64,000 bases of DNA from an uncultured Gammaproteobacteria bacterium (GCA_964472415.1 CAYYLC010000003.1:96075-160074), one strand, 5' to 3'; shown: positions 1,573 to 56,276, counted from the first letter of the stretch. Numbers and translations: made by a program. The notes: generated by a model from the letters alone, not told the origin.

Positions 1573-1596
1573 GTAAATAAATTCACCTCCTTTTTA

Positions 1597-3576
<1,980 letters not shown>

Positions 3577-3689
3577 TTACCCGTACAAAAGTCAAAGCGT
3601 AAGGTCTAGTTTTTCCTATGCCAATGGGCTAAATGAATGATTATTTTTCTGATTACTATTCTAGAAGAGGATACGCTCAAATGAGCATG

Positions 3690-3760: not shown

Positions 3761-3806
3761 TGGTTTGGAGGAGCGAGTGCGAAGGCGCACAGGATTTTTG
3801 CTCTGT

Positions 3807-4376: not shown

Positions 4377-4490
4377 TGCTTTCCTCCAATTGTAAATGTT
4401 CTTTTGCGATGGGTATTTCGGCGATTGAAATACGTCACAAGTGCACAGATTATACTAGATTATAGGATTATAAATCAACAAGAATTTTAA

Positions 4491-5693: not shown

Positions 5694-5694
5694 A

Positions 5695-42579: not shown

Positions 42580-42655
42580 TAATGATGTCTTCCTTGAAGC
42601 TGGGGTGCGTTTTTACTATAATTTACGGGTCCCACACTAAATATGGGTGCGTTTT

Positions 42656-42726
42656 TGCCGAGTCGTCTAATGGTAGGACAACGGACTTTGGATCCGTTTA
42701 TTCTGGTTCGAATCCAGGCTCGGCAG
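42656..42726 (+). tRNA. tRNA-Gln (anticodon UUG)
   Basis: tgccgagtcgtctaatggtaggacaacggactttggatccgtttattctggttcgaatccaggctcggcag: U1-A72 first pair and 3-bp D-stem typical of bacterial tRNA-Gln; anticodon loop ctTTGga. Confidence 0.8.
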
Positions 42727-44409
42727 CATGATTCTACTGATAGGCTGATAATCGATCAAATTGCTTGTTATTACGGCCTTTTCTGTAGGTTCTAACGCAA
42801 ATATAATGTCCTCGATTTCTCTCTTTGCTTTCTCTATAAGAAAATATGGCCTATCTCCTGAGATTTGGAGGCTTCGATCTAGAATTGTTAGGTTCGAACC
42901 AAGTTTTGACAAAATATAGGTTTTGGTTCTAACGTCACCTGTTTCAAACTGATATTTGGCACTGCAAGCGAAGTTAAATGTCTCTTTTGACTGGAAATAC
43001 CACTCCTCTTGTTTCTTGTCCACTGAGTCAATTTGCTTCATGACATCTTTTCTCTCTTTTAGTAGTCTTTCTTCCTCATCATCGTAGAACTTCTGCATTT
43101 CAGTACCATTCGTGACGTTTTCTCTTGAGATTCTAAGTCTCGTAAGCCGCGCAAGCGCTTTATCACAGTTTTCCATCTGTTTTACAAGGTTTTCTTTAAT
43201 ACTTCTAATGTCTGTTTCTTCTTTATCATTTAGTTCATTTAAGTGATCTATGCACCAATCGCGGAACTCTTCCGTTAATTCAAATTTGTTAAGCTCTGTT
43301 TTGATCTTATCTTCAAGATTTTTCAGTGTCACACTACCTTGAGAACAAGTCTTAGTAACTCTTTTTGTGCAGTGGTAGAACACATAATGCAGCAACTTTG
43401 GATTTTTCATTTCCTCAATTAAAGTGCCACATTTAGGACAAGCATTTGTCAGTTTTCCTTTATGGAACTTTTGCTTACAAGTTGAGCAGATTATTTGCAT
43501 CTTTTCCTCAGCAGTCACACTTCCGTCACATTCACCACATTTGAGAACATGCTTATATGCGAATTCATGTCGTGCCATACGTGGCTTGCCTTTGCGTCCT
43601 AAACGCACCTGTAGTGTGTCAAATTCATCTTCAGTGAGCATTGGCTTATGTGTTCCAAATACTTCTCCTTCAGATCGCACCATGAGGCCATAATAGTAAC
43701 TATCTGTGAGGATTCTGTACCATCCAGATTTTGCCATTGGCAAACCGCCTTTACTTCCTCTTGCTCTTGATCTAAATTTCCATTTGTTATTTAGAACATC
43801 TAATGCTTCCATTGGAGTATAAGTTCCATCAATAATCAATCTCATTGCATTTTGCAGTAATGGAAATCTTTCCTCATCCACGCCTATTTTCTTTTCCTTG
43901 GTGGCTTCATCATAGTAGTTGAAGTATCCTGGCTTGGCAGGGCCGATCCATTTTTTAAGGTTGTGGAATATGTAATGGTTACCACGCTTCACATTCTTAC
44001 TCAGATTCCTGGAGTATTGGTTTGCCATTCCAAAATGAATTTGCAGAATAAGGTGATCTGAATCCTGTGTGTATCTTTCACCGTCAGTACTTCGAATTTC
44101 TTGAAGCTTTCCATCTTGTAACAGCTGGAGAAGATGTCCACCTTCCATTGGATTGCGGCACAGTCTGTCTGGCTTCCAAGTAAGAATTGCATTTATCTTA
44201 CGAGCCTCAATGAGTTCAATCATTTTTGTGAACTCTGGCCTATTGTTTGGCTTATATGCAGATTTTGACTCTTGGAAGATATGAGTAACTGTCAAATTGT
44301 CTCTATCAACTGCTTTTTTACACTCCTCATTCTGCTCGTTAATAGACATCGCCTGTTTCTCTTTTGACTCTGATGACTTTCTTGAATATTGTGCGTATAC
44401 TAGTTTCAT
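42667..44409 (-). CDS. large serine recombinase (resolvase/invertase N-domain, recombinase domain, zinc ribbon)
   Basis: 580 aa; N-terminal catalytic region VYAQYSRKSSESKEKQ...IDRLCR; CGECDGS...CSTC and CPKCG zinc ribbon; coiled-coil C-terminus. The 3' end of the ORF runs into tRNA-Gln on the opposite strand. Confidence 0.8.
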   Translation of the reverse strand: MKLVYAQYSRKSSESKEKQAMSINEQNEECKKAVDRDNLTVTHIFQESKSAYKPNNRPEFTKMIELIEARKINAILTWKPDRLCRNPMEGGHLLQLLQDGKLQEIRSTDGERYTQDSDHLILQIHFGMANQYSRNLSKNVKRGNHYIFHNLKKWIGPAKPGYFNYYDEATKEKKIGVDEERFPLLQNAMRLIIDGTYTPMEALDVLNNKWKFRSRARGSKGGLPMAKSGWYRILTDSYYYGLMVRSEGEVFGTHKPMLTEDEFDTLQVRLGRKGKPRMARHEFAYKHVLKCGECDGSVTAEEKMQIICSTCKQKFHKGKLTNACPKCGTLIEEMKNPKLLHYVFYHCTKRVTKTCSQGSVTLKNLEDKIKTELNKFELTEEFRDWCIDHLNELNDKEETDIRSIKENLVKQMENCDKALARLTRLRISRENVTNGTEMQKFYDDEEERLLKERKDVMKQIDSVDKKQEEWYFQSKETFNFACSAKYQFETGDVRTKTYILSKLGSNLTILDRSLQISGDRPYFLIEKAKREIEDIIFALEPTEKAVITSNLIDYQPISRIMLPSLDSNQNKRIQSPLSYH

Positions 44410-44451
44410 TTTCTAAATTCTCCTATATATAAATTTTACCGCTATTTGAGG

Positions 44452-44970
44452 CTAAAAGTCAGCCTTTTCTGTTCGTAATGGTTTATCTTTCCAATTCATT
44501 TGCTTTATAAGTTTCTTTCTCCATACTTCATATTTCGCTTGACTCATCTTTTCATTTCGTTTTATTCCATTTGTATTATTAGTAGGAAGTATATTTCCTG
44601 GATGGAGTGGAACTTTAGTTCCTAAATGAGAGGAATTTCCATTCCTAATGCTTGAACCACTTTTTGCTTTTGAAGGTAAATCTCTTGTACTCTTCAAATT
44701 CCTGTGAACTGTATATGTATTCACTCGATTCCATCCTTCTCTTTTTATTTCAATCAATCCTTCCTTTTTTAGTTGCTTTAATAGAATTCTAATGTTTCTA
44801 TCACCGCATCCTAAAATTGCAGCAAGTGTTGTTTGTCCAGGAAAGCATGACTCTTTTTGATAACAATGTTTGAGCAATACAATGTATAAGAATCTTGCTT
44901 GAACTGAGAGCTGAGACACATCTAATAGTTCGTTTGGAACCATAGTAAAGTTTTTGCGTTTCATATTCAT
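44452..44970 (-). CDS. winged-helix HTH protein (replication-initiator or transcriptional-regulator-like)
   Basis: 172 aa; FTMVPNELLD...LSVQARFLYIVLLKHCYQKESCFPGQTTLAAILGCGDRNIRILLKQLKKEGLIEI resembles phage/plasmid replication HTH domains. Confidence 0.5.
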   Translation of the reverse strand: MNMKRKNFTMVPNELLDVSQLSVQARFLYIVLLKHCYQKESCFPGQTTLAAILGCGDRNIRILLKQLKKEGLIEIKREGWNRVNTYTVHRNLKSTRDLPSKAKSGSSIRNGNSSHLGTKVPLHPGNILPTNNTNGIKRNEKMSQAKYEVWRKKLIKQMNWKDKPLRTEKADF

Positions 44971-45133
44971 TTTTTTGGAATTGGTTTATAGATCAACTTG
45001 AAAAATTCCAACAACTCAACACCAAGTTCATTGGCCTGTTCATCACTTAGCTGAATACCAAACTTTAGGAAGTAAATTACCTTGAATTCGTCGATTGCTT
45101 TTTTGCTCAGTCTCATCATGTCTACATTGTGTT

Positions 45134-45147
45134 AGAAATGATGGAAC
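45134..45147 (+). repeat. island motif copy (agaAATGATGGAAc), partial
   Basis: Matches the AATGATGGAA core of the motif; opens an 18-codon ORF MMELKELQ.... Confidence 0.35.
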
Positions 45148-45186
45148 TTAAAGAGCTACAGAAAGTTGGAGATTATTTGTACACCA

Positions 45187-45960
45187 CTATTTGAGAAGAT
45201 TTTTGTATCTGCGGACTGCTTGTTTTACCATTTCATACTCTGGAATTGCATATCTATTGCGGTTCTTCTCATATTCCAATCTATTGGCCGGTGATGTTGC
45301 GGATAAGGCAATATCTGTATATCCTATGCCTTCAATATTCATCCAATACCATTCACGATCTCGTCTGAAATTGCCAGCCTTCCTATTCTTCATTCGATAG
45401 TAGTAGTTAAGTAACTTCATATGAGATTCAAAGATGTCAGGTACATTCTTTTCAAAGACTTCCTGTACATCTTTAAGTGTTGTCATTGGAGTTATGACAA
45501 TTTTTACTTCAGGTAAATCTGTATATTCTGGAGGCTTGGGTGGATCAGTTGGTTCTACTTCAATCTTTGTGTGTTGATAGCTGAAATCTCCAACAACACC
45601 ACACGCTAAAGCAAACTGAATTATCTGAGTGAAATATCCAGGCTTTTTGAATCTTTTGCATAGCTCTACTGAATCTTCTTCAAACTTCCAGAATGGCCTA
45701 TTTGTACTTCTCCATTCAAAATCTTTTGTGTCTTCAAGTGTTTGAATATCTTCATCTAGCAGTTTTATTGTCCACTTCATGAATTCCGATTCTGACATTA
45801 ACGAATTTATTCCATGCTTCTTTCTGTATTCAGGAAGCAGTCTCAGAAACTCTGGCTTATCAACAAGTAGTGCAACATCCATGTATGCAATATCATTGGT
45901 ACATTTGATGTCTATCTTTAAGTCCAGCAAATCTTTATTGTCTGCAATTCTCATTCTCAT
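45187..45960 (-). CDS. hypothetical protein (257 aa), island-borne
   Basis: Long ORF upstream of the HTH gene; no recognisable motifs. Confidence 0.4.
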   Translation of the reverse strand: MRMRIADNKDLLDLKIDIKCTNDIAYMDVALLVDKPEFLRLLPEYRKKHGINSLMSESEFMKWTIKLLDEDIQTLEDTKDFEWRSTNRPFWKFEEDSVELCKRFKKPGYFTQIIQFALACGVVGDFSYQHTKIEVEPTDPPKPPEYTDLPEVKIVITPMTTLKDVQEVFEKNVPDIFESHMKLLNYYYRMKNRKAGNFRRDREWYWMNIEGIGYTDIALSATSPANRLEYEKNRNRYAIPEYEMVKQAVRRYKNLLK

Positions 45961-46210
45961 CTTTATTTTACTTGATGGGGGTGGCCATTTTACATGGAAG
46001 GATTATAACCAATTTGGTTAGATGCCTCTAAAATTTGCACCTATGCTGGTTAATATCTCAGCTTATGTAGAGTACCAAAGAATATTTATGCAGAGATATA
46101 AAAGCAGCATGTGAGCATTTGCTCTTACTCTTTTCATTTAAGGCTAGGAACTCTTTCAAGACTCTCTGTTATTAGAGGAAATCATTATTTCTAATAGGTG
46201 AATTATCTAC

Positions 46211-46234
46211 TTTTAATCAGGAATGATGGAATGT
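46211..46234 (+). repeat. island motif copy ttttaatcaggaatgatggaatgt
   Basis: Its ATGATGG provides the ATG of the 46223 Xis-like ORF. Confidence 0.5.
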
Positions 46235-46480
46235 TTAATCTCTGGTATTTTGATGTTCAATTTAGTACAATTAAGCTCAACTAATATGAACGCAGAGCTT
46301 GAAGAGCTTATATCTATCCAAGAGGCAGCAAGGATTTTGAATGTCAACGTTCAAACTCTGAGGAGATGGGACAGAACAGGTGTTCTCAAAGCAGTTCGTG
46401 TAGGTACTCGGAAAGGTGTTGGTGACAGACGATACCGCAAGAGTGATATTGAGGCTTATTTGTCACGAAATAAAAAATAA
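46223..46480 (+). CDS. excisionase/MerR-like HTH DNA-binding protein
   Basis: ISIQEAARILNVNVQTLRRWDRTGVLKAVRVGTRKGVGDRRYRKSDIEAYL is a helix-turn-helix of the Xis/MerR (HTH_17) type. Start could be the internal MNAELEE at 46289. Confidence 0.6.
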   Translation: MMECLISGILMFNLVQLSSTNMNAELEELISIQEAARILNVNVQTLRRWDRTGVLKAVRVGTRKGVGDRRYRKSDIEAYLSRNKK

Positions 46481-46504
46481 GCACCAAAGAGAATTAAGAA
46501 AATT

Positions 46505-47413
46505 ATGGCATTATTTACAATTACTAATAATAAGGCATCGAAAATTGCACCGATTAAAGTTGGGCTGGAGAAAGATGTACAAAAGATATTCGAAGAGAAT
46601 CTAAATGAGATTTTGAATATAACTTTTCTTGCCACTGAATACTCTACAAGTTTTGGAGGGAGAATTGATTCTCTCGGAATTGATAATAATGGTGCACCAG
46701 TCATTATTGAATATAAACGTAACCATAATGACAATGTAATCAACCAAGGCCTTTCATATCTTCGATGGTTACTAGATCATAAAGCAGATTTTGATGTATT
46801 AGCACATAAAGTAAATCCAGAAATTGAGATTGACTGGAATTCTCCACGAGTCATTTGTGTGGCTGAGAGTTATAACAAATTTGATCTGGATACTGTTGAA
46901 CTTCTTCCAATTAACATTGAACTTTTGAGATATAAAATTTATCAAAACAATCTCCTACTAGTAGAGCCAGAAACACAACAAAAAGTACGTATCTCAACCT
47001 CAAAAATTTTCAATAAAGAAAAACAAGAGAAATCAATTGGAGAAAAAGTCACTTACAAATTAGAGGATCATCTATCTGGTATCAGTTCGAAAGCAAAGGA
47101 AATATTTGAAGAGGTAAATGAAAAAATTGTTGCACTTGATGAGTCAATTATTGTTGAGCCAAAAGCGAAATATATTGCCTATAAATTGACAACAAATTTT
47201 GTTGATATTGTTGTAAAGCAATACGGCCTCAAAATTTTTCTAAATGTTCCAAGTGGTGAACTGAATGATCCTCATGGTATGGCACGTGATCTCACAAAGC
47301 CAAAACCTATTGGACACTGGGGTAATGGAGACTACGAAGTAAAAATTGAAACACAAGAGGATATAGAAAAAGTATTTGATCTAATCAAGCAAAGTTATTC
47401 ATTCAATAAATAA
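46505..47413 (+). CDS. PD-(D/E)xK-type nuclease (restriction-endonuclease-like N-domain with DUF5655-like C-terminal region), candidate R subunit
   Basis: GRIDSLGIDNNGAPVIIEYKR is a D...(D/E)xK core. The stop at 47413 lies 3 bp from the methyltransferase start (translational coupling). Confidence 0.5.
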   Translation: MALFTITNNKASKIAPIKVGLEKDVQKIFEENLNEILNITFLATEYSTSFGGRIDSLGIDNNGAPVIIEYKRNHNDNVINQGLSYLRWLLDHKADFDVLAHKVNPEIEIDWNSPRVICVAESYNKFDLDTVELLPINIELLRYKIYQNNLLLVEPETQQKVRISTSKIFNKEKQEKSIGEKVTYKLEDHLSGISSKAKEIFEEVNEKIVALDESIIVEPKAKYIAYKLTTNFVDIVVKQYGLKIFLNVPSGELNDPHGMARDLTKPKPIGHWGNGDYEVKIETQEDIEKVFDLIKQSYSFNK

Positions 47414-47415
47414 AT

Positions 47416-48504
47416 ATGAGTTCAAAATCATTAAATTCAAATTTACACAAAGCAAGTAAAGCAAAAAAGGATGAGTTTTATACTCAACTTACAGATATTG
47501 AAAAAGAGCTTCGACACTATAAAGATCAATTCAAAGGCAAAGTTGTTTACTGCAACTGTGATGATCCTTTCGAAAGTAACTTCTTCAAATACTTCGCTTC
47601 CAATTTCAACGCACTAGGACTTAAAAAACTAATAACTACTAGTTTTTCAGGCTCACCAATCACTGGAAAGCAACTTTCTCTATTGGACATGGAAGGACTA
47701 AAACCTAAAGGAAAACAGCCATTCAAGATTGAGATTACTAATGTACCAGACAAGAATACTGATGGTGCTATCGACTTAACAGATGTGGAATGGCTATTAA
47801 AACAAGACACGAATGTATCCACTCCTCTTAAAGAAAGCGGAGACTTTAGAAGTGAAGAATGTATAGACTTACTCAAGCAATCAGATATTGTGGTAACTAA
47901 TCCACCATTCTCACTCTTTCGAGAATATATTGCTCAACTTATTGAGTATGAAAAAAAGTTTTTGATTATCGGAAATTTGAATGGAATAAGCTATCAAGAA
48001 ATATTTAAGTTAATCCAAGGCAATAGGCTTTGGCTAGGTTACAATAATGGACACAAAACTTACTTAGTTCCAGATTATTATGAGCAAAAGAATATATATG
48101 TCGGTGAGGATGGTAAAAAGTATGCCAAAATGGGAAATACAGGATGGTTTACAAATCTAGATATTAGCAAACGTCACGAAATGCTTACTCTTTATAAAAG
48201 ATATAATCCGCAAGACTTTCCACAGTACGACAACTATGACGCAATTGAAGTATCAAAAGTATTAGAAATTCCGTTAGATTATAATGGCATTATGGGTGTG
48301 CCAGTAACATTTCTTGACAAATATAATCCAGAACAATTTGAAATATTAGGGATTACTGATAGAAATCCTAAGAGCAAATATAGAACAAAAATGTATACCA
48401 AGGCTGACTCACCAATGTATAACGACTTAAACAGACGTGCAGCAATTAAATTTGATGGTAAATTAAAACCTACATATGCTCGATTGCTGATAAAGAAAAA
48501 ATGA
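47416..48504 (+). CDS. N6-adenine (or N4-cytosine) DNA methyltransferase
   Basis: DEFYTQL N-terminal motif, catalytic motif IV VVTNPPFS (NPPF), candidate AdoMet-binding region KVVYCNCDDPFES. Confidence 0.7.
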   Translation: MSSKSLNSNLHKASKAKKDEFYTQLTDIEKELRHYKDQFKGKVVYCNCDDPFESNFFKYFASNFNALGLKKLITTSFSGSPITGKQLSLLDMEGLKPKGKQPFKIEITNVPDKNTDGAIDLTDVEWLLKQDTNVSTPLKESGDFRSEECIDLLKQSDIVVTNPPFSLFREYIAQLIEYEKKFLIIGNLNGISYQEIFKLIQGNRLWLGYNNGHKTYLVPDYYEQKNIYVGEDGKKYAKMGNTGWFTNLDISKRHEMLTLYKRYNPQDFPQYDNYDAIEVSKVLEIPLDYNGIMGVPVTFLDKYNPEQFEILGITDRNPKSKYRTKMYTKADSPMYNDLNRRAAIKFDGKLKPTYARLLIKKK

Positions 48505-48505
48505 T

Positions 48506-49609
48506 ATGAAAATTGAATTACACAAAATAAAAGTTCGTGAAGTGGTTGAAGGATACAAAGACAATGCTGAAGAAGGTGTTGTAGGATATGGTGGCGAACT
48601 TGATATTCGCCCTAAGTATCAGCGTGAATTCGTTTACAAAGACGCTCAGCGTGATGCAGTGATAGATACTGTCAAGAATGGCTTTCCTCTTAATGTCATG
48701 TATTGGGTAGTGCGTGAAGATGGTGGATATGAAGTCCTTGATGGACAGCAACGCACAATCTCGCTTGCACAATATGTAAATGGAGACTTTTCCATAGACT
48801 TTAATGGTAGGCTGGCAATGTTTCATAACTTAACTCCAGAAGAACAAAACCAGATTTTAGATTATGAGTTGATGATCTACTTTTGTGAAGGTACAGACAA
48901 AGAACGCCTTGATTGGTTTAGGATCATTAACATTGCTGGTGAGAAATTAACAGATCAAGAATTGAGAAATGCAGTATATACAGGGCCATGGCTTTCTGAC
49001 GCAAAACTTAAATTCAGTAAATCAAATTGCGTAGCATATCTTCTTTCAAATGACGGAGGTGCGTTACTCTCTGGATCACCAATAAGACAGGAATATTTAG
49101 AAACAGTACTTTCGTGGATCAATAATGGTGCAATTGAGGATTATATGGCACGTCATCAACATGATGAAAATGCCGATGAGCTATGGAATTATTTTCAAGA
49201 AGTAATCGCTTGGGTGAGAAAAACATTCTCAAACTACAGAAGAGAGATGGCAAGCGTGAATTGGGGTGAACTATACAATCAATTCAAGGATCATGAACTA
49301 AATCCTGAAAAACTGGAAGCTGAAATAAAAGTACTCATGCAGGATGAAGATGTTACAAAAAAGAGCGGTATTTATCCTTACGTTTTGACTCGTCTTGAAA
49401 AATATCTATCTATTAGAGCTTTTACTGACAAAATGAGACGAGAGGCATATGAGAGGCAAAATGGCGTATGTCCATTCTGCAAAAATAAATTTGAAATTGA
49501 AGAAATGGAAGCAGATCATATTACTCCATGGCATGAAGGTGGAAAAACAACTGCTGACAACTGTCAAATGCTTTGCAAACAAGATAATAGAACAAAATCT
49601 GGTGTGTAA
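48506..49609 (+). CDS. DUF262 (ParB/GmrS-like NTPase) - HNH endonuclease fusion, GmrSD-like candidate type IV or modification-dependent nuclease
   Basis: N-terminal DUF262 with DGQQRT motif; C-terminal HNH CPFCKNKFEIEEMEADHITPWHEGGKTTADNCQMLCKQDN. Start 2 bp after the methyltransferase stop. Confidence 0.65.
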   Translation: MKIELHKIKVREVVEGYKDNAEEGVVGYGGELDIRPKYQREFVYKDAQRDAVIDTVKNGFPLNVMYWVVREDGGYEVLDGQQRTISLAQYVNGDFSIDFNGRLAMFHNLTPEEQNQILDYELMIYFCEGTDKERLDWFRIINIAGEKLTDQELRNAVYTGPWLSDAKLKFSKSNCVAYLLSNDGGALLSGSPIRQEYLETVLSWINNGAIEDYMARHQHDENADELWNYFQEVIAWVRKTFSNYRREMASVNWGELYNQFKDHELNPEKLEAEIKVLMQDEDVTKKSGIYPYVLTRLEKYLSIRAFTDKMRREAYERQNGVCPFCKNKFEIEEMEADHITPWHEGGKTTADNCQMLCKQDNRTKSGV

Positions 49610-49656
49610 GTTGTATTGAATTAAAAATATGCTAAATCTGCCTATTATTACGAATA

Positions 49657-51273
49657 ATGAAAATATCGAAAATTATTGTTCAGAACTATAGATCAATTGA
49701 AAGGGTTGAGGTTAATCCAAGCAAATTTTCCATCTTTATCGGACAAAACAATCACGGCAAAACAAATTTCTTTGAGGCAATTGAATGGTTCTACAATTCC
49801 AAGTCATCAAATGAAGAAGAATATTGTAGAAAAGATTCAGACAATAAAATTCAAGTTGAGATAACTTTTGATGATGTTCTAGAAACAGACATTGAAAAAC
49901 TTACTTCTGATACCAATAAAACTAAAATTAGAAATATTTTGAATGGCTCTACTTCATTCTCTGTAATCAAATCAAGTACAGATCATAAAAGAAAATACTT
50001 TGTTAATGGTGAAGATAAAGGTAATCCTCAAGGACTAGACACTGCCATCAATGAATTTTTACCTAAGCTCGAATATGTTAATACTTCAATAAGATTAAAT
50101 GACGTTTCAAAATACAAAGACAGAAATCCTATTGGAACAATGCTTTCTGGCGTTCTCACTGCCATTATTGAAACATCACAAGACTACATTGAATTTAAGC
50201 AAACCTTCACAAAGTTATTTGACAATGCAGACTCAGAAGTTAGAAAAGAGCTTGATAAGTTAGGCGGACAAGTTGAAGTATATCTTCAGAAACAATTTCC
50301 AGGTGATACTAAGGTAAAGTTTGGTGTTAATCCACCTCATTTTACTGACTTATTAAAAAGTTTTGATACATCAATAAATGATGGAATTGAAACAACTGCT
50401 GAGGCAAAAGGTGATGGTATGCAAAGAGCAATAATGCTTTCAATTATCCAAGCATTTGCTGACTATCGTAAGAAGCAAATTGGTGGTGGAACTTTTCTGT
50501 TTATGATTGATGAAGCGGAATTGCACCTTCATCCAACTGCACAACGTTCTCTAAAGAATGCCTTATTAGACATATGTCAAACAGATCAAGTACTGGTAAA
50601 TACTCACTCCTCTGTTTTGGTTGTTGATAACAATGAACTTCAGAAGATTTTCAAGGTTGAAAAAACTGATGGAGTAACAAATATAGATGAGGTTGATGAT
50701 CTTGAGAAGATAAACATTATCTTCGAATTACTTGGTGGAAGTCCTTCCGATCTATTATTGCCAAGGAACTTTCTAATAGTAGAAGGAAAATGTGAATACG
50801 AATTCATCAAAATCATTATTGAACGTTATTATCGTGACAAATTTGATGGAATTAAGGTTTTATTTGCTGGAGGTGACTTGGATGAGCAAGAATCATCATT
50901 GCTCGCAGTCCACAAACTCTTTAATCCATTAGCTGGATCAGACAATCCAATTTATAAGGAAAGAGCTATTGTTTTAATAGACAAGCAAAATGGAGATCAG
51001 CAACATAAATTTGAAGCTTTTAAGCAAGGTTATCCTTATTTATTCAGCAATAATCATGTTTTTGAATTAACTACTACAACTCTGGAAGAATATTATCCAG
51101 ATGCATATAAGAAGAATGCTGCTGAGATCGCTCAACTGCAAGCAGACAGAAAAAAAGTTGAATATGCTAAAGAAGTTGCGTCAAAGATTACACAAGAGGA
51201 ATTTGAAAATGATATGCAGATAATATTCCAAGCACTTACTAAGTGTAATGAATGCGCTTTTAATCCGAAATAA
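49657..51273 (+). CDS. OLD-family protein: ABC/AAA_15-type ATPase with C-terminal TOPRIM-like nuclease region
   Basis: IVQNYRSIE...FIGQNNHGKTNFFEAIEWF (GxNxxGKT Walker A of the OLD/AAA_15 type), Q-loop region, Walker B/D-loop FLFMIDEAELHLHP, then FLIVEGKCEYEFI...VLIDKQNGD consistent with the TOPRIM conserved Glu and DxD. Confidence 0.7.
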   Translation: MKISKIIVQNYRSIERVEVNPSKFSIFIGQNNHGKTNFFEAIEWFYNSKSSNEEEYCRKDSDNKIQVEITFDDVLETDIEKLTSDTNKTKIRNILNGSTSFSVIKSSTDHKRKYFVNGEDKGNPQGLDTAINEFLPKLEYVNTSIRLNDVSKYKDRNPIGTMLSGVLTAIIETSQDYIEFKQTFTKLFDNADSEVRKELDKLGGQVEVYLQKQFPGDTKVKFGVNPPHFTDLLKSFDTSINDGIETTAEAKGDGMQRAIMLSIIQAFADYRKKQIGGGTFLFMIDEAELHLHPTAQRSLKNALLDICQTDQVLVNTHSSVLVVDNNELQKIFKVEKTDGVTNIDEVDDLEKINIIFELLGGSPSDLLLPRNFLIVEGKCEYEFIKIIIERYYRDKFDGIKVLFAGGDLDEQESSLLAVHKLFNPLAGSDNPIYKERAIVLIDKQNGDQQHKFEAFKQGYPYLFSNNHVFELTTTTLEEYYPDAYKKNAAEIAQLQADRKKVEYAKEVASKITQEEFENDMQIIFQALTKCNECAFNPK

Positions 51274-51276
51274 ATT

Positions 51277-52032
51277 ATGTCTCAATACTACAATCCAAAT
51301 CGAAAAAGAAACCTGTACGATCCTCACTCACCTGAGTTATTCCGCTTGAGTCGAGGAAAGATTGATAACTTCATCAATTGTCCACGGTGTTTTTATTTGG
51401 ACAGGCGTCTTGGTGTTGGACAGCCGCCAGGTTATCCATTTTCGCTCAATTCTGCAGTTGATAAGCTCTTGAAGAAAGAATTTGATGTTCATAGAGTAAA
51501 TGGCTCAAAACATCCACTGTGCGATAAATATGGTGTTGATGCAGTTCCGCTATCACACGATAAGATTGATGAATGGCGTGACTCTTTAAGAGGTGGAATT
51601 ACAGTTCACATTGACAGCACGAATGTTGTCATTACTGGTGGCGTGGATGATATTTGGATTTCACCAGAAGGTGAATACATTATTGTTGACTACAAGGCCA
51701 CATCTAAAGATGGTGAAGTATCACTGGATGCTGACTGGCAAATTGGATATAAGCGGCAAATGGAAATATATCAATGGCTTTTTAGGAAAAATGGCTTCAA
51801 AGTGGCTGATACTGGATATTTTGTCTACTGTAATGGAAATACTGACAAAGAAGCATTTGATGGAATGCTTGAATTTGAGATCAAACTCATTCCATACACT
51901 GGTAACACAGATTGGGTAGAAAAGACGATCCTGGACGCAATCAGGTGCCTCCAGAGCGATGTTTTACCTGAGCCTGGACAGGATTGTGACTTTTGTAAAT
52001 ACAGACAAGCTGTGAAGGAATTTGAAGATTAA
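51277..52032 (+). CDS. Cas4/RecB-like PD-(D/E)xK nuclease with four Cys (CxxC at each end)
   Basis: NCPRCFYLD (N-terminal CxxC), GGVDDIW...EGEYIIVDYKAT (D...E...DxK), KRQMEIYQWL (QxxxY motif of the RecB nuclease family), C-terminal CDFCKY. Start 3 bp after the OLD-like gene stop. Confidence 0.65.
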   Translation: MSQYYNPNRKRNLYDPHSPELFRLSRGKIDNFINCPRCFYLDRRLGVGQPPGYPFSLNSAVDKLLKKEFDVHRVNGSKHPLCDKYGVDAVPLSHDKIDEWRDSLRGGITVHIDSTNVVITGGVDDIWISPEGEYIIVDYKATSKDGEVSLDADWQIGYKRQMEIYQWLFRKNGFKVADTGYFVYCNGNTDKEAFDGMLEFEIKLIPYTGNTDWVEKTILDAIRCLQSDVLPEPGQDCDFCKYRQAVKEFED

Positions 52033-52139
52033 ATAGGGCTGGGTCGTGGTGAAAACACCACCTCGGCTTGTTCCGCTGACACCTTAAATCAATTTGCTAC
52101 ATCACGCCTCGCTGGTGTTTTTACCACATTTCTTAATAG

Positions 52140-52166
52140 TTTTAATCATAATGATGGAATTCATCC
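52140..52166 (+). repeat. island motif copy ttttaatcataatgatggaattcatcc
   Basis: Lies between the Cas4-like gene and the small membrane peptide gene. Confidence 0.5.
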
Positions 52167-52207
52167 TGTCATTTGAGATACTATTGAATAAGTAAGGAGG
52201 TGAAAGT

Positions 52208-52396
52208 ATGAATTTTAAGAAATTTGACATGATAGATATTGGATTCACTAAGCTTTCGGTTATGTGTTTCACTTTATTTGCTGTTTCTGCATTTCCAGGA
52301 CTCGCTGAATGGATCACAAACACATCTTGGATGCTATTTCTAGTCGTGAGCCTAGTATTTGCCATCAAACCAGTTATGAAGGTATTCAAGAAGTAG
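52208..52396 (+). CDS. small membrane peptide (62 aa)
   Basis: Strong RBS taaggaggtgaaagt-ATG; two hydrophobic helices; immediately upstream of the CPBP protease gene. Confidence 0.5.
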   Translation: MNFKKFDMIDIGFTKLSVMCFTLFAVSAFPGLAEWITNTSWMLFLVVSLVFAIKPVMKVFKK

Positions 52397-52420
52397 TTTT
52401 AATCAGAAATGATGAAATTG
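52397..52420 (+). repeat. island motif copy ttttaatcagaaatgatgaaattg
   Basis: 33 bp upstream of the CPBP protease start. Confidence 0.5.
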
Positions 52421-52452
52421 AACTGGTTTTGATATACTTTCATTATTAACAA

Positions 52453-53334
52453 ATGAAATTATCTAAGTATCAGCTACCTATTTTCTTCTTCCTTGCTTTT
52501 GCCATCACTTGGACTGCGCAAATCACAGCATATTTATATGCATTTCCAAACGACATAAATCTTACCAATGAATCCAATTTCCTAAATTTTGTGAATATTG
52601 GCGGTTTGCCGCCTGGCTTTCTTCCATACTTGCTTCTTTTCTCCTTCTCTTTCGGGCCAACGGTTGCTGGAATCATTGTTACTTACTGGTTTTATGGCAA
52701 TAAAGGCATGCGAGGAATACTTGATCAACTATTCGCGATTAGATTGCCTGGTAAATGGTATTTATTGGCAATAACAATTCCAGTTGGACTTGTACTTGCA
52801 AGCCTTTTGCTAGGCTTTGTCTTAAGTGGCTTTCAGTCAATTCAGTATGAGTTTCTTGTTCCATTGTCTCTATTTATTCCATTCTTCCTGTATATGACTA
52901 TATTTACAGGACTTGCGGAGGAAGTTGGTTGGCGAGGATATGCGCTTCCACAGCTTCAAAAAAAATATACTGCTGAGAAAGCAAGCTGGATATTAGGTAT
53001 TGCATGGGGACTTTGGCATTTACCTGTAAATCTGATGGTGCCATTTCTGTCAGGCAATTTACAAATACCATATATTGTGATGATCCTACTCGCGTTAACT
53101 CTTGGTATTGCAGGTTGGACAATTGTCCTTACATGGTTTTATAACAACACAAAGAGTCTCTTTCTCATCATATTCATTCATGGATTTATGAATACACTTC
53201 AGTCATATCTCATATTGTCCTCTAACAATCAGATTGCACCTATGCTTTATGGCATACTGCCATGGATAGTAGCAACATATCTTTTGAAAAAGTACGGAGG
53301 TAAGACACTATTGGTTCCTTCGAATAAACAGTGA
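52453..53334 (+). CDS. CPBP-family intramembrane glutamic protease (CAAX protease / Abi domain)
   Basis: Multi-TM protein with EEVGWRGY (EExxxR), FxxxH (LWHL) and HGFMN motifs. Confidence 0.75.
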   Translation: MKLSKYQLPIFFFLAFAITWTAQITAYLYAFPNDINLTNESNFLNFVNIGGLPPGFLPYLLLFSFSFGPTVAGIIVTYWFYGNKGMRGILDQLFAIRLPGKWYLLAITIPVGLVLASLLLGFVLSGFQSIQYEFLVPLSLFIPFFLYMTIFTGLAEEVGWRGYALPQLQKKYTAEKASWILGIAWGLWHLPVNLMVPFLSGNLQIPYIVMILLALTLGIAGWTIVLTWFYNNTKSLFLIIFIHGFMNTLQSYLILSSNNQIAPMLYGILPWIVATYLLKKYGGKTLLVPSNKQ

Positions 53335-53346
53335 AATTCAATAACT

Positions 53347-53802
53347 ATGAATATAAAAAGCCTTTGGAGTAAAATAAACAGTCGATTACAGAAACAGTGG
53401 ATTGCGTGCAGACTGGTATCAGATAGGAAAAGTGTTCAATATGGCATTCGCTTTAGCTATCCGCTCTTCATAGCAATTGTATTAATAAGTATATTTCTGG
53501 AAAATCCTTTTATATTACTATTTGCTGCTCTGATTGCTTTTTTTGGCATGAAATTACCATTACATCCTTTTGACTATGTTTATAGCTATGGAATTGCGAA
53601 GCTAATAGGAGTTAATAAAATACCTGGTAGAGGATCAGAGTTGCAGGTTAACAGTATTGTGGCGCTTATATTTACCTTGTTTGTAAGTGTTTTGATACTT
53701 TTTAGAGTTCCAATCAATTATTCTATGCTTGCTATTATTTATCTTGTGAGCAATATCTTCATACTTGGAATGTTCTTGATAAAGAAGGATTCAAGGAAGT
53801 AA
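53347..53802 (+). CDS. hypothetical polytopic membrane protein (151 aa)
   Basis: Four hydrophobic segments; follows the CPBP gene by 12 bp. Confidence 0.4.
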   Translation: MNIKSLWSKINSRLQKQWIACRLVSDRKSVQYGIRFSYPLFIAIVLISIFLENPFILLFAALIAFFGMKLPLHPFDYVYSYGIAKLIGVNKIPGRGSELQVNSIVALIFTLFVSVLILFRVPINYSMLAIIYLVSNIFILGMFLIKKDSRK

Positions 53803-53816
53803 TAAACCAAGTCGCT

Positions 53817-53912
53817 TTTAATCAGCAGTGATGGAATTCATCAAAAACTAGGCTGAAAAGCAGGTTGGAATGGTTGTTTTGTATTGATAAAATAGGTTCT
53901 AACAGCGTCTAC
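53817..53912 (+). repeat. ~95-bp direct repeat, left copy (ttttaatcagcagtgatggaattcatc ... aatggttgttttgtattgataaaataggttctaacagcgtct)
   Basis: Contains the island motif plus a second conserved block; a similar copy lies at 56008-56092 on the other side of the surface-protein gene. Confidence 0.6.
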
Positions 53913-53974
53913 TAGACACAGCTGAGTAAGCTTTCAAGCCTTGGTTACATTTGGCTAATCTAAAGAGGCATACT

Positions 53975-55924
53975 TTAACATCCTACCCTTAGTACTTGCC
54001 CTATGTTAAGAAGCGTAGAGCTTAGGTTATTTTTCTGCATTAAATCTGAGTATTTGGTACCTGATTCTAGGTTTTGGGAGGCGATAGTCCACAGATTGTC
54101 TCCTGGCTGCACCACATAATCCTGACATTCTTTTACAGACACTGTCGTTGCTTCCAGATCACCATTTCCACTGCCTGCATTAGTTACTCGTCTAGGAAAT
54201 ACAGACAAAATTCTCGATACAAAGTTTTTGTAATACGATGTTGCTTTTGATGACGAGTTACTCGTTGTTGCTGTCATTGTATTTCCCCACTCTCCAGGCA
54301 TGCAGCCGTTGCCACCTCTGACTACGAATGAATACTTAGAATTAGGAGATAAGGCATTAACAGTATACGAAAGCACTCCATTTGATACTCCTGTTTCAAA
54401 CTCTACTCCATACATATTAGTACTTTCTCCATTCCCATAAGCGATGAAGTACTTATGTGCATCTGATATAGGTGCAAAGTAAAGAGTGGCTTGTGTATTA
54501 TTCGTATCTATTTGGAAAAGATTAGGTGTGTTCAGTGGCCTAGTATCTGCGCACGTTGGAGCTGATGGTGAGGAAATGTCAGGTGACGAATTAGTGTTGT
54601 TTGATTGTAGTATAGGTTTGGGTGTAGGTGTACTGGTAGGTTCAGGTGTGGGAGTATTTGTCGGAGTTAGCGTTGGAGATGGAGTACCGGTTGGCGTTGG
54701 CGTCGGAGAATTTGTCGGTGTTGGGGTAGGTGTATTGGTTGGAGTTGGTGTGGGAGTAGTCTCAGGAGCGTCCTCTTCCAATGCAAATTTCAGATTGTTG
54801 TTGGTATTATCATAGTAGCTGATTCTGGCAAACCCGTCACTGCCCACCGCCAGAGAAGCGGGCAACCCTACATCTCCGTCTGCATCAACAATGCTGGTTT
54901 CTTTCTGTGTACAGTCATCATTAGCACATCTAATAAACTTGAGATCAGAGTTAGTATGATCTCGATAAGCTATCCTTGCATAGCCATCATCTCCTACTGC
55001 AATGGACGTATGTAGCCCTACAAATCCGTCTGAATCAAGGGTTGCAATATTACTTTCTGAACAATCAGCATTGGTGCATTGTGCAAATTTGAGATCGCCA
55101 TTTGTCCCATCATAGTAGCTGATTTTAGCAAAACCGTCACTGCCCATGGCAAGGGAAAGATGCGATCCTACGCCTCCTGAGTCAACAGTGGAGACATTTT
55201 TATTTGAACAATCGGCATTGGTGCATTGTAAAAATTTGAAATCATCAGTTATCTCATCGTAGTAGCTGATTCTGGCAAAACCGTCACTGTTCAAGGCAAG
55301 GGAGGAATAATATGGGTACGCACCTGAGTCAAGGGTTGCAACGTTACTTTCTGAACAATCGGCATTGGTGCACTGAGCAAACATCAATAGAGTATTCATG
55401 AATTCAAAATACAGAATCCGCGCAAAGCCGTCACTGCCCATGGCAATGGAAGGGTACCACTCCGTATTACGTTCAGGATCTATGGCGGTGACAGACTTTG
55501 ATGAACAATCGGCATTAGTACACGCGATTAAATACATCTCTTCAAATATAGATTTAGAATAGACGATCCGAGCAAATCCATCGTTACCCATGGCGAGGGA
55601 GTTATTTTGGACCTGTAATAACCCGCCCGTGTCAAACCACGATAATCCTGTGGCAACCGTGGTGATATTTTTTTCTGAACAATCGGCATTGGTGCACTGA
55701 ACAAATTTCAGCTCAGCAGTAACAAAGTCAGTATAGACGATCCGAGCAAATCCATCGTTACCCATGGCGAGGGAAATATCTTCTCCTATATCGCTAACCG
55801 AGTCAACAGCTTCAATTTTCCAGGCACTGGCGGCATTGACCGGCTGCGTAGGTAGAAACGAAGTACTCAAAAGTGAGATGAGAAAGAATGCTATGGTGAA
55901 AATGCTGAATAATTTTTTTTGCAT
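53975..55924 (-). CDS. secreted surface protein: signal peptide, seven ~47-aa CTNADCS repeats, Pro/Thr-rich linker, beta-rich domain, C-terminal LysM
   Basis: MQKKLFSIFTIAFFLISLLS signal. Seven repeats of consensus LAMGxDGFARIxYxDxxxxDLKFxQCTNADCSxxNxxTxDSxG. The 54590-54780 DNA is a PT-repeat (TPTPTPTNTPTPTPTNSPTPTPTG...). C-terminal YVVQPGDNLWTIASQ...LNIGQVLRV is LysM. Confidence 0.7.
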   Translation of the reverse strand: MQKKLFSIFTIAFFLISLLSTSFLPTQPVNAASAWKIEAVDSVSDIGEDISLAMGNDGFARIVYTDFVTAELKFVQCTNADCSEKNITTVATGLSWFDTGGLLQVQNNSLAMGNDGFARIVYSKSIFEEMYLIACTNADCSSKSVTAIDPERNTEWYPSIAMGSDGFARILYFEFMNTLLMFAQCTNADCSESNVATLDSGAYPYYSSLALNSDGFARISYYDEITDDFKFLQCTNADCSNKNVSTVDSGGVGSHLSLAMGSDGFAKISYYDGTNGDLKFAQCTNADCSESNIATLDSDGFVGLHTSIAVGDDGYARIAYRDHTNSDLKFIRCANDDCTQKETSIVDADGDVGLPASLAVGSDGFARISYYDNTNNNLKFALEEDAPETTPTPTPTNTPTPTPTNSPTPTPTGTPSPTLTPTNTPTPEPTSTPTPKPILQSNNTNSSPDISSPSAPTCADTRPLNTPNLFQIDTNNTQATLYFAPISDAHKYFIAYGNGESTNMYGVEFETGVSNGVLSYTVNALSPNSKYSFVVRGGNGCMPGEWGNTMTATTSNSSSKATSYYKNFVSRILSVFPRRVTNAGSGNGDLEATTVSVKECQDYVVQPGDNLWTIASQNLESGTKYSDLMQKNNLSSTLLNIGQVLRVGC

Positions 55925-56007
55925 AGCATAAAGGATGACTCATATTAAGTCTAACGATTATCACGTTTTTGAGTCAACCTTTTCAGGCAAATAAGCTAAT
56001 AAAAGGG

Positions 56008-56092
56008 ACATCATCAGGAACGATGGAAACCAAAAGAATACTCACAAAAATGGTTGTTTCATATTGATAAAATAGGTTCTAACACTGTCTGC
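56008..56092 (+). repeat. ~90-bp direct repeat, right copy (catcaggaacgatggaaacc ... aatggttgtttcatattgataaaataggttctaacactgtct)
   Basis: About 75-80 percent identical to 53817-53912; the block ATTGATAAAATAGGTTCTAACA is identical in both. Confidence 0.6.
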
Positions 56093-56276
56093 CAAGCACA
56101 ACAAAGCCCATCAACACCGCTGCTGTTTGTAATTTACGATACTGAAAAACTTCTGGAAATAGAATAGAATCATTCCATGACTACTTTTTCCTATTTATTA
56201 TAGGTAGCTTATTGTTACTCGTGTTTTTAATCTATCTATCATATTTCTAAATAGATAAATTAAGGAGGTGATACAT

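Follow-up and report, generated by a model that had tools for sequence, protein, structure and literature searches.

A two-part motif restricted to an integrative defence island, as a candidate control site located at recurrent module breakpoints

In T4-type phages, a variable region of small accessory genes is punctuated by short conserved regulatory repeats, the promoter-early plus stem-loop (PeSL) cassettes (Arbiol et al. 2010, PMC2839356; follow-up PMC4122927). In PeSL cassettes the repeat holds a strong sigma-70-type promoter, and neighbouring repeats can exchange to form mini-circles. We identified a repeat with a similar disposition in an integrative island within a 64-kb stretch of DNA, the whole of which is called the window here. 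As with PeSL, close relatives differ by insertions, deletions and replacements that end at the repeats, in this case between the window and the loci L084, L078, L081, L068 and L216; a terminator-like stem-loop and putative promoters also lie near some of the copies. Recombination between repeats is the presumed source of such end points. However, the island repeat is 21–22 bp long and contains neither a full promoter nor a stem-loop, supplying at most a -35-like ATGATG with the -10 outside. Only one copy in the window (copy 2) adjoins a hairpin, as do its homologues in L084 and L087, whereas copies 1, 3 and 4 have none. In addition, PeSL cassettes belong to lytic phages, while the present repeat belongs to a serine-recombinase integrative island of a probable candidate-phyla-radiation (CPR) bacterium.

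Other points of comparison are the repressor or activator operators of temperate phages and integrative elements, the inverted-repeat operators of iteron-type Rep and O-like initiators, the attC sites of integrons, which are structured imperfect palindromes of 57–141 bp that fold as single strands, and the att sites of large serine recombinases (LSRs), which lie at element boundaries and measure about 40–50 bp. The island motif resembles the operators in having bipartite, partly dyad-symmetric halves over about 20 bp, in its restriction to one element, and in its location at or near the -35 of several predicted promoters; the island core also encodes an O-like winged-helix DNA-binding protein. 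It differs from them in that the copies are dispersed 0.26–6 kb apart, the half-site spacing varies by 2 nt, the more distant family members lack the motif, and the cognate protein is a candidate only.

The copies lie in a mobile defence island of about 11 kb next to a tRNA gene (Table 1). The arrangement of tRNA-Gln and recombinase at its left end is likewise found in L084, L087 and L090. In relatives a different cargo takes its place, namely a type I restriction-modification system in L087 and a HinfI system in L090. Its first gene, encoding an Xis-like HTH_17 protein, is started at ATG 46286 (64 aa) by one gene caller on an identical contig and in the L087 homologue. Downstream of the terminator-like hairpin at the end of the defence operon (-33.3 kcal/mol, z = -2.2) come a U-rich tract and motif copy 2, and the arrangement of hairpin and motif is conserved in L084 and L087. 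At the right boundary, module D6 is 86–91% identical in L084, L078 and L081, and the distant island L094 shares a 27-nt core of it at 100% identity; the module in L092 is followed by the left end of a second island. D6 is probably a recombinase attachment arm. Motif and right end are arranged as at copy 4 in L216, L068 and L087 also. The second right-end module, D6', is probably a relic of an earlier integration. The island family, related islands and decayed remnants included, probably belongs to CPR bacteria.

Table 1. Motif copies and neighbouring features, with positions counted from the first nucleotide of the window
Feature	Position	Strand	Description
Defence island	42728–~53925		Contains the motif copies
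tRNA-Gln(UUG)	42656–42727	+	Left boundary, integration target; overlaps 3' end of recombinase ORF
Conserved island core	42667–45960	-	Four genes
Large serine recombinase	42667–44409	-	Island left end
HTH_36 O-like DNA-binding protein	44452–44970	-	Conserved core
50-aa protein	44967–45119	-	Conserved core
Right half-site only	45134–45148	+	AGAAATGATGGAACT; between 257-aa and 50-aa core genes; not counted as a copy
257-aa protein	45187–45960	-	Conserved core; fold without assignment
Motif copy 1	46211–46232	+	TTTTAATCAGGAATGATGGAAT = TTTTAATCA-GGA-ATGATGGAAT; exact match; divergent regulatory region between 257-aa core gene (-) and HTH_17/defence cargo operon (+)
ATGATG of copy 1	46223–46228		17 nt upstream of TGGTATTTT
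Extended -10-like element after copy 1	46243–46251		TGGTATTTT
TACAAT	46266–46271		Further downstream of copy 1; start codon at 46286
Defence cargo operon	46286–52032	+	Variable; HTH_17, DUF5655, EcoRI-like methyltransferase, GmrSD-HNH, AAA_15 ATPase, PD-(D/E)XK nuclease
Xis-like HTH_17	46286–46480	+	First cargo gene
Long hairpin, terminator-like	52046–52127	+	15-bp stem GUGGUGAAAACACCA/UGGUGUUUUUACCAC; end of defence operon; repeat I12
Motif copy 2	52140–52160	+	TTTTAATCATAATGATGGAAT = TTTTAATCA-TA-ATGATGGAAT; 3' of terminator-like hairpin, 5' of 62-aa membrane-protein unit
-10-like element after copy 2	52174–52182		TGAGATACT; then strong Shine-Dalgarno and ATG 52208
Motif copy 3	52397–52418	+	TTTTAATCAGAAATGATGAAAT = TTTTAATCA-GAA-ATGATGAAAT; directly 3' of 62-aa stop codon (TAG, 52394–52396), 5' of CPBP and DUF4395
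Extended -10-like element after copy 3	52430–52438		TGATATACT; upstream of CPBP
CPBP	52453–53334	+	Downstream of copy 3
DUF4395	53347–53802	+	Downstream of CPBP
Motif copy 4	53816–53837	+	TTTTAATCAGCAGTGATGGAAT = TTTTAATCA-GCA-GTGATGGAAT; 3' of DUF4395, 5 nt 5' of conserved right-end module
Right-end module D6	53843–53925	+	Core TTGATAAAATAGGTTCTAACAGCGTC; right boundary
LysM gene	53975–55924	-	Between D6 and D6'
Degenerate motif-like site	56008–56029	+	ACATCATCAGGAACGATGGAAA; 6 mismatches, equal to background; 5' of D6'
Second right-end module D6'	56048–56100	+	36–37 nt stretch 100% identical to L084 and L216 copies

A preliminary description of the window listed at least six copies, all intergenic and mostly upstream of plus-strand genes, and none in the core-genome part. 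Four of the six stand, each with 0–1 mismatch. In a mismatch scan of both strands of the 64 kb the next-best sites have 5–6 mismatches, which is background; dinucleotide-preserving shuffles predict 0.00 matches at three mismatches or fewer, and the core TTAATCA-N2-5-TGATG occurs four times against 0.16 expected. Each of the four strong copies lies between genes, as had been stated, and each is on the plus strand and co-directional with the genes downstream; successive copies are 5929, 257 and 1419 bp apart. The same scan found no copy in the remaining ~53 kb of the window, core-genome promoters included. The site reported at 45134 (AGAAATGATGGAAC) was rejected as a copy, being the right half alone with 6 mismatches, a background value; a weak match in L084 at the homologous site is uninformative because it falls within a core block that is ~81% identical. 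The right half-site TGATGGAA is over-represented on its own (16 occurrences against 4.5 expected), with 8 of the 16 inside the island. The site near 56,010 is plausibly a decayed relic of the motif, the one indication being its position just upstream of D6'.

Beyond the window, a scan of one genome from each of 185,579 species returned 72 single hits, roughly the number expected from base composition. The only one homologous to the element is L068, a decayed remnant of it. Viral and metagenome collections likewise gave single hits only, and the 48 from metagenomes all lack homology to the element. Restriction of the motif to the element, which the preliminary description proposed to check genome-wide, is thus confirmed within the window and supported by the species scan. 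Within the family, the motif is absent from the more distant islands L092, L093 and L094.

The motif has the general form TTTAATCA-N2-4-ATGATGGAA. Both halves are nearly invariant across the related islands and remnants, while the spacer (GGA, TA, GAA, GCA, CTA, TAAA, CCG, CCA or TAG) and the flanks vary, the latter being unrelated or about 60% identical between relatives. The 257-aa core protein is only 72–80% identical among the compared islands, yet the motif halves there are invariant or nearly so. Copy 1 is kept at the equivalent place in L084, L090, L068 and L078; the L078 copy is identical at 22 of 22 positions, and the housekeeping proteins of its host are mostly only ~35–55% identical. 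The dyad symmetry is partial. Of the 15 tabulated sites, the 13 that fit the bipartite pattern all carry ATCA...TGAT, and TTTAATCA agrees at 6 of 8 positions with TTCCATCA, the reverse complement of TGATGGAA. Full palindromes of the form TTCCATCA-N3-5-TGATGGAA are found in L087 and, within the HTH_36 gene, in L084.

Invariant halves, a free spacer and diverged flanks across islands and hosts indicate purifying selection on two putative recognition blocks. This bears on the idea that the copies are passive, functionless relics of successive duplications or insertions. They do sit at module junctions, and some of their surroundings suggest common descent: copies 2 and 4 are both followed by TCATC, and GGAATTC is common to these two and to L078, L216 and L068. 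However, such relics would not be expected to keep their halves while spacers, flanks and core proteins diverge, and we judge this explanation quite improbable.

The copies end 34–54 nt before three start codons (46286, 52208 and 52453), and predicted extended -10-like elements follow copies 1–3 at 10–16 nt. ATGATG lies 17–18 nt upstream of the elements at the cargo operon (TGGTATTTT) and at CPBP (TGATATACT), so that the motif overlaps the -35 position at two copies. A generic sigma-70 scan gave no more sites than shuffled sequence and flagged only the promoter-like site after copy 4. The arrangement of motif, predicted promoter and CPBP is common to the window, L078 and L084. At CPBP in L078, L081 and L084 the ATG follows TATACT by 6–7 nt, a leaderless-type geometry that supports TATACT as a real -10.

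These observations raise the possibility of a propagated, 'mobile' promoter with the motif as its upstream half, in which the A/T-rich TTTTAATCA would be an UP-like element and ATGATG a -35-like one, both used by RNA polymerase alone and spreading with small gene units. The spacing of 17–18 nt between ATGATG and a -10-like element recurs at the cargo operon in L084 and L090 and at CPBP in L078 and L084, and every copy is co-directional with the genes that follow. However, ATGATG fits TTGACA at only 3 of 6 positions, and the 17 invariant positions of the motif are far above what polymerase contacts normally conserve. The spacing from ATGATG is 20 nt at the 62-aa unit and 29 nt at DUF1428 in L216, and copy 4 lacks a suitable -10 at a fixed distance. 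Moreover, L081 retains CPBP and its promoter in the absence of the motif, and no copy is found at the core-genome promoters in 53 kb. We therefore consider a mobile promoter rather unlikely.

Action at the RNA level was also considered, with the motif serving in the polycistronic transcript as an MME leader peptide, a translational element, a processing site or a small hairpin. The short MME ORFs noted in the preliminary description do exist: ATGATGGAA opens ORFs of 7–14 codons, and the ATG at 46223 is in frame with the HTH_17 gene. Three copies directly follow upstream stop codons or a hairpin and could be transcribed by read-through. However, the ORFs vary in length and sequence and share no conserved Shine-Dalgarno (copy 2 has none), and past the ATG L084 and L090 differ by substitutions that are not codon-like. 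The hairpin is predicted at only -0.3 to -1.8 kcal/mol, which is not lower than for shuffled sequence, and compensatory changes are absent. No Rfam family matches were found in the region. A role in RNA is thus highly improbable.

Where relatives differ by the gain or loss of a module, homology maps and junctions repeatedly place the end of the change at the motif. The cargo-promoter copy is joined to the CPBP promoter in L078 and to the right end in L068. The 62-aa unit, which lies between two copies in the window, is missing from L084, where there is one copy. CPBP is present between a motif copy and DUF4395 in the window and absent in L216, and the homology of L081 to the window begins 4 nt past the motif. 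With M for the motif, the window array reads hairpin-M-[62aa]-M-[CPBP-DUF4395]-M-end and that of L216 M-[DUF1428-62aa]-m-[DUF4395]-M-end, while L087 and L068 read M-end, with zero cassettes.

Such an array could be integron-like, the motif being a site-specific recombination site for the capture of cassettes at the right end by the LSR or by a core protein, for example the 257-aa protein. As with attC and attI, co-oriented imperfect palindromes lie between small variable units, and a site-specific recombination module adjoins them. The window, L216 and L068 each have one motif more than they have cassettes (L087 has an extra weak copy before the hairpin), and in the window and L216, the two loci with the 62-aa and DUF4395 genes, each of these genes is followed by a copy. 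In length the motif is also similar to the crossover sites of small serine recombinases; the hix and gix sites are ~26 bp. However, no tyrosine recombinase, and so no IntI-type integrase, was found in the island: Pfam hits for 10 ORFs (42667–52396) show only the Resolvase-type serine recombinase, precomputed Pfam annotation of an identical contig (L001) added none for the rest of the island, and Pfam gave no small serine recombinase. Unlike structured attC sites, the motifs have negligible hairpin stability and are far shorter; several units carry promoter-like sequences of their own, and some cassettes lack a site, since no 3' copy follows CPBP in L084, L078 and L081 or DUF1428 in L216. Variation of 2 nt in the half-site distance is incompatible with a fixed central crossover, and copy 1, in the cargo promoter region, lies far from the array. 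The hybrid copies retain spacers of different parents, GGA of the left parent in L078 and GCA of the right parent in L068, which suggests crossovers at differing positions, as in homologous exchange, although this is inconclusive. Cassette capture at the motif has, in our view, only a small chance of being correct.

The suggestion in the preliminary description that the motif is a site for the serine recombinase finds no support as stated. The island ends at the 3' flank of tRNA-Gln and at 53843–53925, which places the LSR att sites there. The motif shares imperfect symmetry with such sites on the same element; however, it lies inside the island, has half the length expected and is not related in sequence to the island ends. 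A link to recombination survives in another form, as modules have repeatedly been gained or lost with breakpoints at the copies.

The operator and promoter readings of the preliminary description fit best, given a motif that is bipartite, dyad-symmetric in part and adjacent to predicted promoters. We propose that it is an element-specific bipartite protein-recognition control site (an operator or promoter-upstream site) whose copies double as patches of homology for module shuffling, an explanation to which we give about an even chance. The halves are separated by 2, 3 or 4 nt rather than by the fixed spacing of a dimeric operator, and variation of this extent is unusual for a rigid dimeric regulator. 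Nor is the interval from motif to -10-like element constant, being 10, 13–16, 24 or ~50 nt. The copies are not clustered or helically phased direct repeats, as the iterons of a replication origin would be.

Judged by sequence, candidate binders are the HTH_36 and HTH_17 proteins and the 50-aa and 257-aa core proteins. The Xis-like HTH_17 protein, one of the regulators first proposed, is unlikely to be the sole binder: L084 keeps two motif copies and has no HTH_17 gene, and L087 has HTH_17 and lacks the motif in its cargo promoter region. Among the compared islands no protein co-varies cleanly with the motif. The remnants L216, L078 and L068 retain perfect copies with no island regulator; for this, a regulator gene acting in trans would have to exist elsewhere in those genomes, a host factor would have to take its place, or the decay would have to be recent. 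The binder would probably come from the conserved core, and the best candidate is the HTH_36 O-like winged-helix protein. HTH_36 matches the N-terminal domains with which phage O-like and DnaD-like initiators bind origins; such proteins recognise dyad-symmetric repeats of ~19 bp.

According to this proposal, a DNA-binding protein would occupy sites in a family of ~11 kb LSR-driven integrative defence islands inserted at tRNA-Gln. Each rightward unit is preceded by one copy, be it the cargo operon, the 62-aa gene, CPBP-DUF4395 or the right end. A protein bound at the -35 of extended -10-type promoters, or immediately 5' of it, could then co-ordinate rightward expression, either by repression or by class-II-type activation. 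The copies are the sole sequence common to otherwise unrelated modules and so form short patches of homology, and recombination at them may allow the modules of these islands to be deleted, duplicated or swapped.

We identified four copies of a bipartite motif of 21-22 bp in the window, all on the plus strand and all within the mobile defence island (Table). A search allowing up to 3 mismatches found the full motif three times and a one-base-shorter variant once, compared with 0.00 copies expected from dinucleotide-preserving shuffles, and the core TTAATCA-N2-5-TGATG is observed 4 times vs 0.16 expected. When both strands are scanned with up to 6 mismatches, the four copies stand at 0-1 mismatch and the next matches appear only in a background of 5-6 mismatches. 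The preliminary description had counted at least six copies. Four of these are real, whereas the sites at 45126/45134, which has the right half only, and at 56008/56010 are background-level matches with 5-6 mismatches. The 56008 site is at best a decayed relic, the one point in its favour being its position before the second copy of the right-end repeat. As described, the four real copies are intergenic and the core-genome part of the window lacks them; they are co-directional with the plus-strand genes downstream. The motif is a real, element-specific cis element.

Table. Features of the island and its surroundings (window coordinates)
Feature	Position	Strand	Remarks
tRNA-Gln	42656-42727		
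Large serine recombinase (LSR), Resolvase-type, 580 aa	42667-44409	-	directly right of tRNA-Gln; last ~20 codons overlap the tRNA
HTH_36, 50-aa and 257-aa genes	HTH_36: 44452-44970; 257-aa gene: 45187-45960	-	right of the LSR
Motif copy 1	46211-46232	+	ATGATG 17 nt upstream of TGGTATTTT (46243-46251); TACAAT 46266-46271; ATG 46286
Cargo: HTH_17, DUF5655, EcoRI-like methyltransferase, GmrSD-HNH, AAA_15 ATPase, PD-(D/E)XK nuclease	HTH_17: 46286-46480; methyltransferase: 47416-48504		rightward order
Long hairpin	52046-52127		after cargo
Motif copy 2	52140-52160	+	TGAGATACT 52174-52182; strong Shine-Dalgarno; ATG 52208
62-aa membrane protein, CPBP protease, DUF4395 protein			in that order after the hairpin
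Motif copy 3	52397-52418	+	TGATATACT 52430-52438; ATG 52453
Motif copy 4	53816-53837	+	right-end module starts 5 nt downstream
Right-end module, ~80 nt	53843-53925		island end; second copy 56048-56100

Homologues of the 257-aa core protein form a small family of 25 clusters, and the contigs that encode them carry the same core beside tRNA-Gln with different cargo. The cargo is a type I restriction-modification system in L087, a HinfI system in L090 and an EcoRI-like methylase with GmrSD and AAA_15 in L084. These tRNA-Gln serine-recombinase defence islands are a newly delineated family, and a literature search on serine-recombinase islands of CPR bacteria or Saccharibacteria returned nothing specific. 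The 257-aa protein has no Pfam or PHROG match, and its confident AlphaFold model (pLDDT 82.7) has no fold match in the PDB. Its gene is always divergent from the cargo operon. The host of the island is probably a CPR bacterium; named relatives of the DUF4395 protein belong to Dojkabacteria, WS6 and Doudnabacteria.

The motif recurs in the closer relatives. In L084 it is found in the cargo promoter region and again between the hairpin and the CPBP gene, L090 has one copy in the cargo promoter region, and in L087 one copy separates the hairpin from the right end and a weaker one precedes the hairpin. The remnants L078, L068 and L216-L220 have no core genes, yet the motif is present. Across these loci the blocks TTTAATCA and ATGATGGAA show little or no variation, their spacer of 2-4 nt varies freely (GGA, TA, GAA, GCA, CTA, TAAA, CCG, CCA, TAG), and the flanks are unrelated or about 60% identical. 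The L078 copy is identical at 22/22 positions in a host whose housekeeping proteins mostly share only ~35-55% identity with those encoded in the window. Perfect palindromes TTCCATCA-N3-5-TGATGGAA occur inside the HTH_36 gene of L084 (3873-3893) and inside hsdR of L087 (4221-4240). They are built from the right half of the motif, and a degenerate version lies at the homologous spot of the window HTH_36 gene (about 44636-44656). By analogy, the palindrome in the HTH_36 gene is reminiscent of O-like initiator genes that have an origin or operator within them.

The more distant islands L092, L093 and L094 do not contain the motif. A strict scan of 185,579 representative species genomes, a set that apparently lacks the source species, gave 72 single matches, approximately the number estimated from base composition, and only L068 among them is homologous to the element. 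A loose scan of viral contigs (IMG/VR) gave only single matches among the at least 120 listed and was uninformative. In the JGI metagenomes, the GGAATTC-extended motif gave 48 single matches, none homologous to the element, and the combination of hairpin and motif gave none, though one JGI contig (L003) fits the same pattern; the JGI negative is weak because this collection evidently lacks the relevant contigs. The proposed restriction of the motif to the element holds within the window and is supported by the scan of species genomes; outside the family, all scans gave only single matches at chance level.

Each of the first three copies lies shortly before sequences resembling expression signals (Table), which are to be read as consensus matches and inferences. 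In the right-end module after copy 4 lies TTGGAA-17-TAAAAT, extended by a TG; of the promoter-like sites downstream of the copies, it alone was picked up by a generic scan, which showed no enrichment over shuffles. The block CTGGTATTT is conserved in L084 and L090 at an equal distance from copy 1. In L078, L081 and L084 the TATACT of the CPBP gene is followed by the ATG 6-7 nt downstream, a leaderless-type geometry. Since L081 has the CPBP promoter without the motif, the two can be separated. The -10 lies at varying distances from the motif (10, 13-16, 24 or ~50 nt), so the motif is not simply a -35 element.

Because its blocks are conserved while the spacer is free, and because it shows partial dyad symmetry, has palindromic variants, is restricted to one family and lies co-oriented close upstream of each rightward unit, the motif bears the signature of a regulatory protein-recognition site. 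It would most likely be an operator, or a site upstream of promoters, that also serves as a seam for recombination. An operator for the HTH or Xis proteins of the island had been suggested. The regulatory part of that proposal agrees with this signature, but HTH_17 is disfavoured as the binder because L084 has the motif without the gene, and L087 has the gene with no motif in the cargo promoter. The most plausible candidate is one of the conserved core proteins. Among these, HTH_36 has matches to the N-terminal, origin-binding domains of initiators of the O-like and DnaD-like types. Such initiators bind dyad-symmetric repeats of ~19 bp, and some iteron-type initiators autoregulate via inverted-repeat operators.

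Several other roles were considered and set aside. A role at the RNA level is unlikely, as there is no Rfam match in the region and the motif hairpin is unstable. A leader peptide does not agree with the inconsistent length and sequence of the ORFs or with copy 2, which has no Shine-Dalgarno sequence. No convincing match was found to sigma-54 or ECF-type promoters, nor to the Fur, LexA/Cheo box, ArgR, DnaA box and other operator consensus sequences. The EcoRI site GAATTC is found at the 3' edge of copies 2 and 4 (52155-52160 and 53832-53837) and also in L078, L216 and L068. In the island, the gene of an EcoRI-family methyltransferase precedes that of a GmrSD-type enzyme, and no cognate EcoRI-type endonuclease was detected among the ORFs of the island. 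A link between motif and methylase was rejected, as GAATTC is missing from copies 1 and 3 and from both L084 copies, though L084 has the methylase. Its presence in the other copies probably reflects shared ancestry.

BLAST maps and junction sequences reveal that differences between relatives repeatedly end at the motif. With M for a motif copy and m for a degenerate one, the arrays read hairpin-M-[62aa]-M-[CPBP-DUF4395]-M-end in the window, M-[DUF1428-62aa]-m-[DUF4395]-M-end in L216, hairpin-M-[CPBP]-end in L084 and m-hairpin-M-end in L087. The 62-aa unit (52160-52397) sits between copies 2 and 3 and is absent from the one-copy array of L084. In L216 the order is 62aa-motif-DUF4395, where the window has CPBP between, and the homology of L081 with the window begins 4 nt past copy 3. 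In L084, L078 and L081 the right end follows CPBP with neither DUF4395 nor copy 4 in between. In L078 the left flank and spacer of copy 1 are fused directly to the CPBP promoter, with 46233-52418 deleted, and in L068 the left flank of copy 1 is fused to the spacer and right flank of copy 4, with all cargo deleted. The recurrent junctions fit motif copies serving as the only homology between unrelated modules. The hybrid spacer is that of the left parent in L078 and that of the right parent in L068, so these sequences suggest, though not conclusively, that the crossovers took place at differing points of the repeat, which would be expected of homologous exchange.

Alternatively, the motif could be the site at which a hitherto unknown system for capturing gene cassettes recombines. 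Such a system, at the right end of the serine-recombinase islands of CPR bacteria, would be functionally analogous to integrons but would use sites of 21-22 bp and a recombinase of the serine or an unknown class, not a tyrosine recombinase. This would explain why small units (62 aa, CPBP, DUF4395, DUF1428) are gained and lost exactly at motif copies, as well as the motif-to-motif deletions in remnants. However, half-site spacing is variable, a suitable recombinase is lacking, some cassettes have no motif site and one motif copy lies in the cargo promoter region, and we consider such a system quite improbable. The promoter-early plus stem-loop (PeSL) cassettes of T4-type phages are similar in behaviour only; in these cassettes the repeat itself includes a promoter and every copy has a stem-loop, whereas the motif contains no full promoter and, of its window copies, only copy 2 adjoins a hairpin.

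The CPBP gene, with its short promoter and the right-end module, shifts between contexts (window 52453-53334, L078 6821-7741, L081 10001-10879). It is 82% identical in L078, where most of the adjacent housekeeping genes share only ~35-55% identity with their counterparts in the window, and in L081 its neighbour is a small resolvase. Actinobacteria (Arthrobacter, Kocuria, Micrococcales) have annotated homologues at about 55% identity. Another relative has a DUF4395 gene (69% identical) that adjoins a hotspot in L222, L224 and L225 (about 600-5700) and in L221 (2278-5576) that contains either a CBASS-like set (SMODS, bacHORMA, AAA ATPase and CARF-domain protein) or a BglII restriction-modification system. 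The motif is absent from these four loci.

The right-end module is kept in all related islands compared. Its 27-nt core TTGATAAAATAGGTTCTAACAGCGTC (53885-53910) is 100% identical in the distant island L094 (3738-3764), which adjoins tRNA-Ser, not tRNA-Gln, and whose 257-aa protein is only 48% identical. In L092 the module is followed directly by the left end of a second island. This conservation across islands places the island ends, or recombinase attachment arms, at the tRNA flank and the module, not at the motif, contrary to the earlier suggestion that the motif copies are recombination sites for the serine recombinase. The 27-nt core is probably the recombinase-binding arm of attP/attR. 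Part of it, GGTTCTAAC, recurs at 42788 inside the 3' end of the recombinase gene and resembles the T-arm of tRNA-Gln (GGTTCGAATCC).

The 3' end of the LSR ORF overlaps the neighbouring, oppositely oriented tRNA gene by ~60 nt, an arrangement also seen in L084 (1868-1939), L087 (13243-13314), L090 (6064-6135) and L094 (9594-9680). In the close islands this gene encodes tRNA-Gln, in L094 tRNA-Ser. The final codons of the recombinase are thus antisense to the tRNA that marks the integration site. GGGTGCGTTTTT is present twice just upstream of tRNA-Gln (42604-42615 and 42646-42657), and in L084 the 5' end of tRNA-Gln is partly duplicated (1768-1790) ~100 nt upstream of the intact gene.

A LysM gene (649 aa; 53975-55924, minus strand) sits between the two right-end module copies of the window. 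Its G+C content is above that of its surroundings, and the protein has internal tandem modules of ~147 nt (49 aa; ...FVQCTNADCS...), with repeats at 54782-55774, and a Thr/Pro-rich linker. The second module copy includes a 36-37 nt stretch 100% identical to the L084 and L216 copies, and suggests a relic of an earlier integration, i.e. tandem accretion at tRNA-Gln. The region is flanked by three alpha-amylase/trehalose-synthase-family paralogues (40825-42579, minus; 59044-60648, plus; 60683-62317, minus), two of which share an 87-nt stretch that is 72% identical (42215/62037).

To our knowledge, almost nothing is known of gene regulation and the biology of mobile elements in CPR bacteria. The island family defined here is small and tractable: its members are driven by an LSR, target tRNA-Gln, carry exchangeable defence cargo (a type I restriction-modification system, a HinfI system, or GmrSD together with an EcoRI-like methylase) and contain a sharply defined, directly testable cis element of 21-22 bp. 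On present evidence the motif is a useful, unsurprising instance of an already known type of feature; a cassette-capture system, if real, would raise its importance. As an operator, the motif would offer a starting point for understanding cargo control in such islands. Were it chiefly a recombination seam, it would illustrate accessory genes being exchanged as modules, driven by tiny repeats, between hosts that mostly share only ~35-55% identity in their housekeeping proteins.
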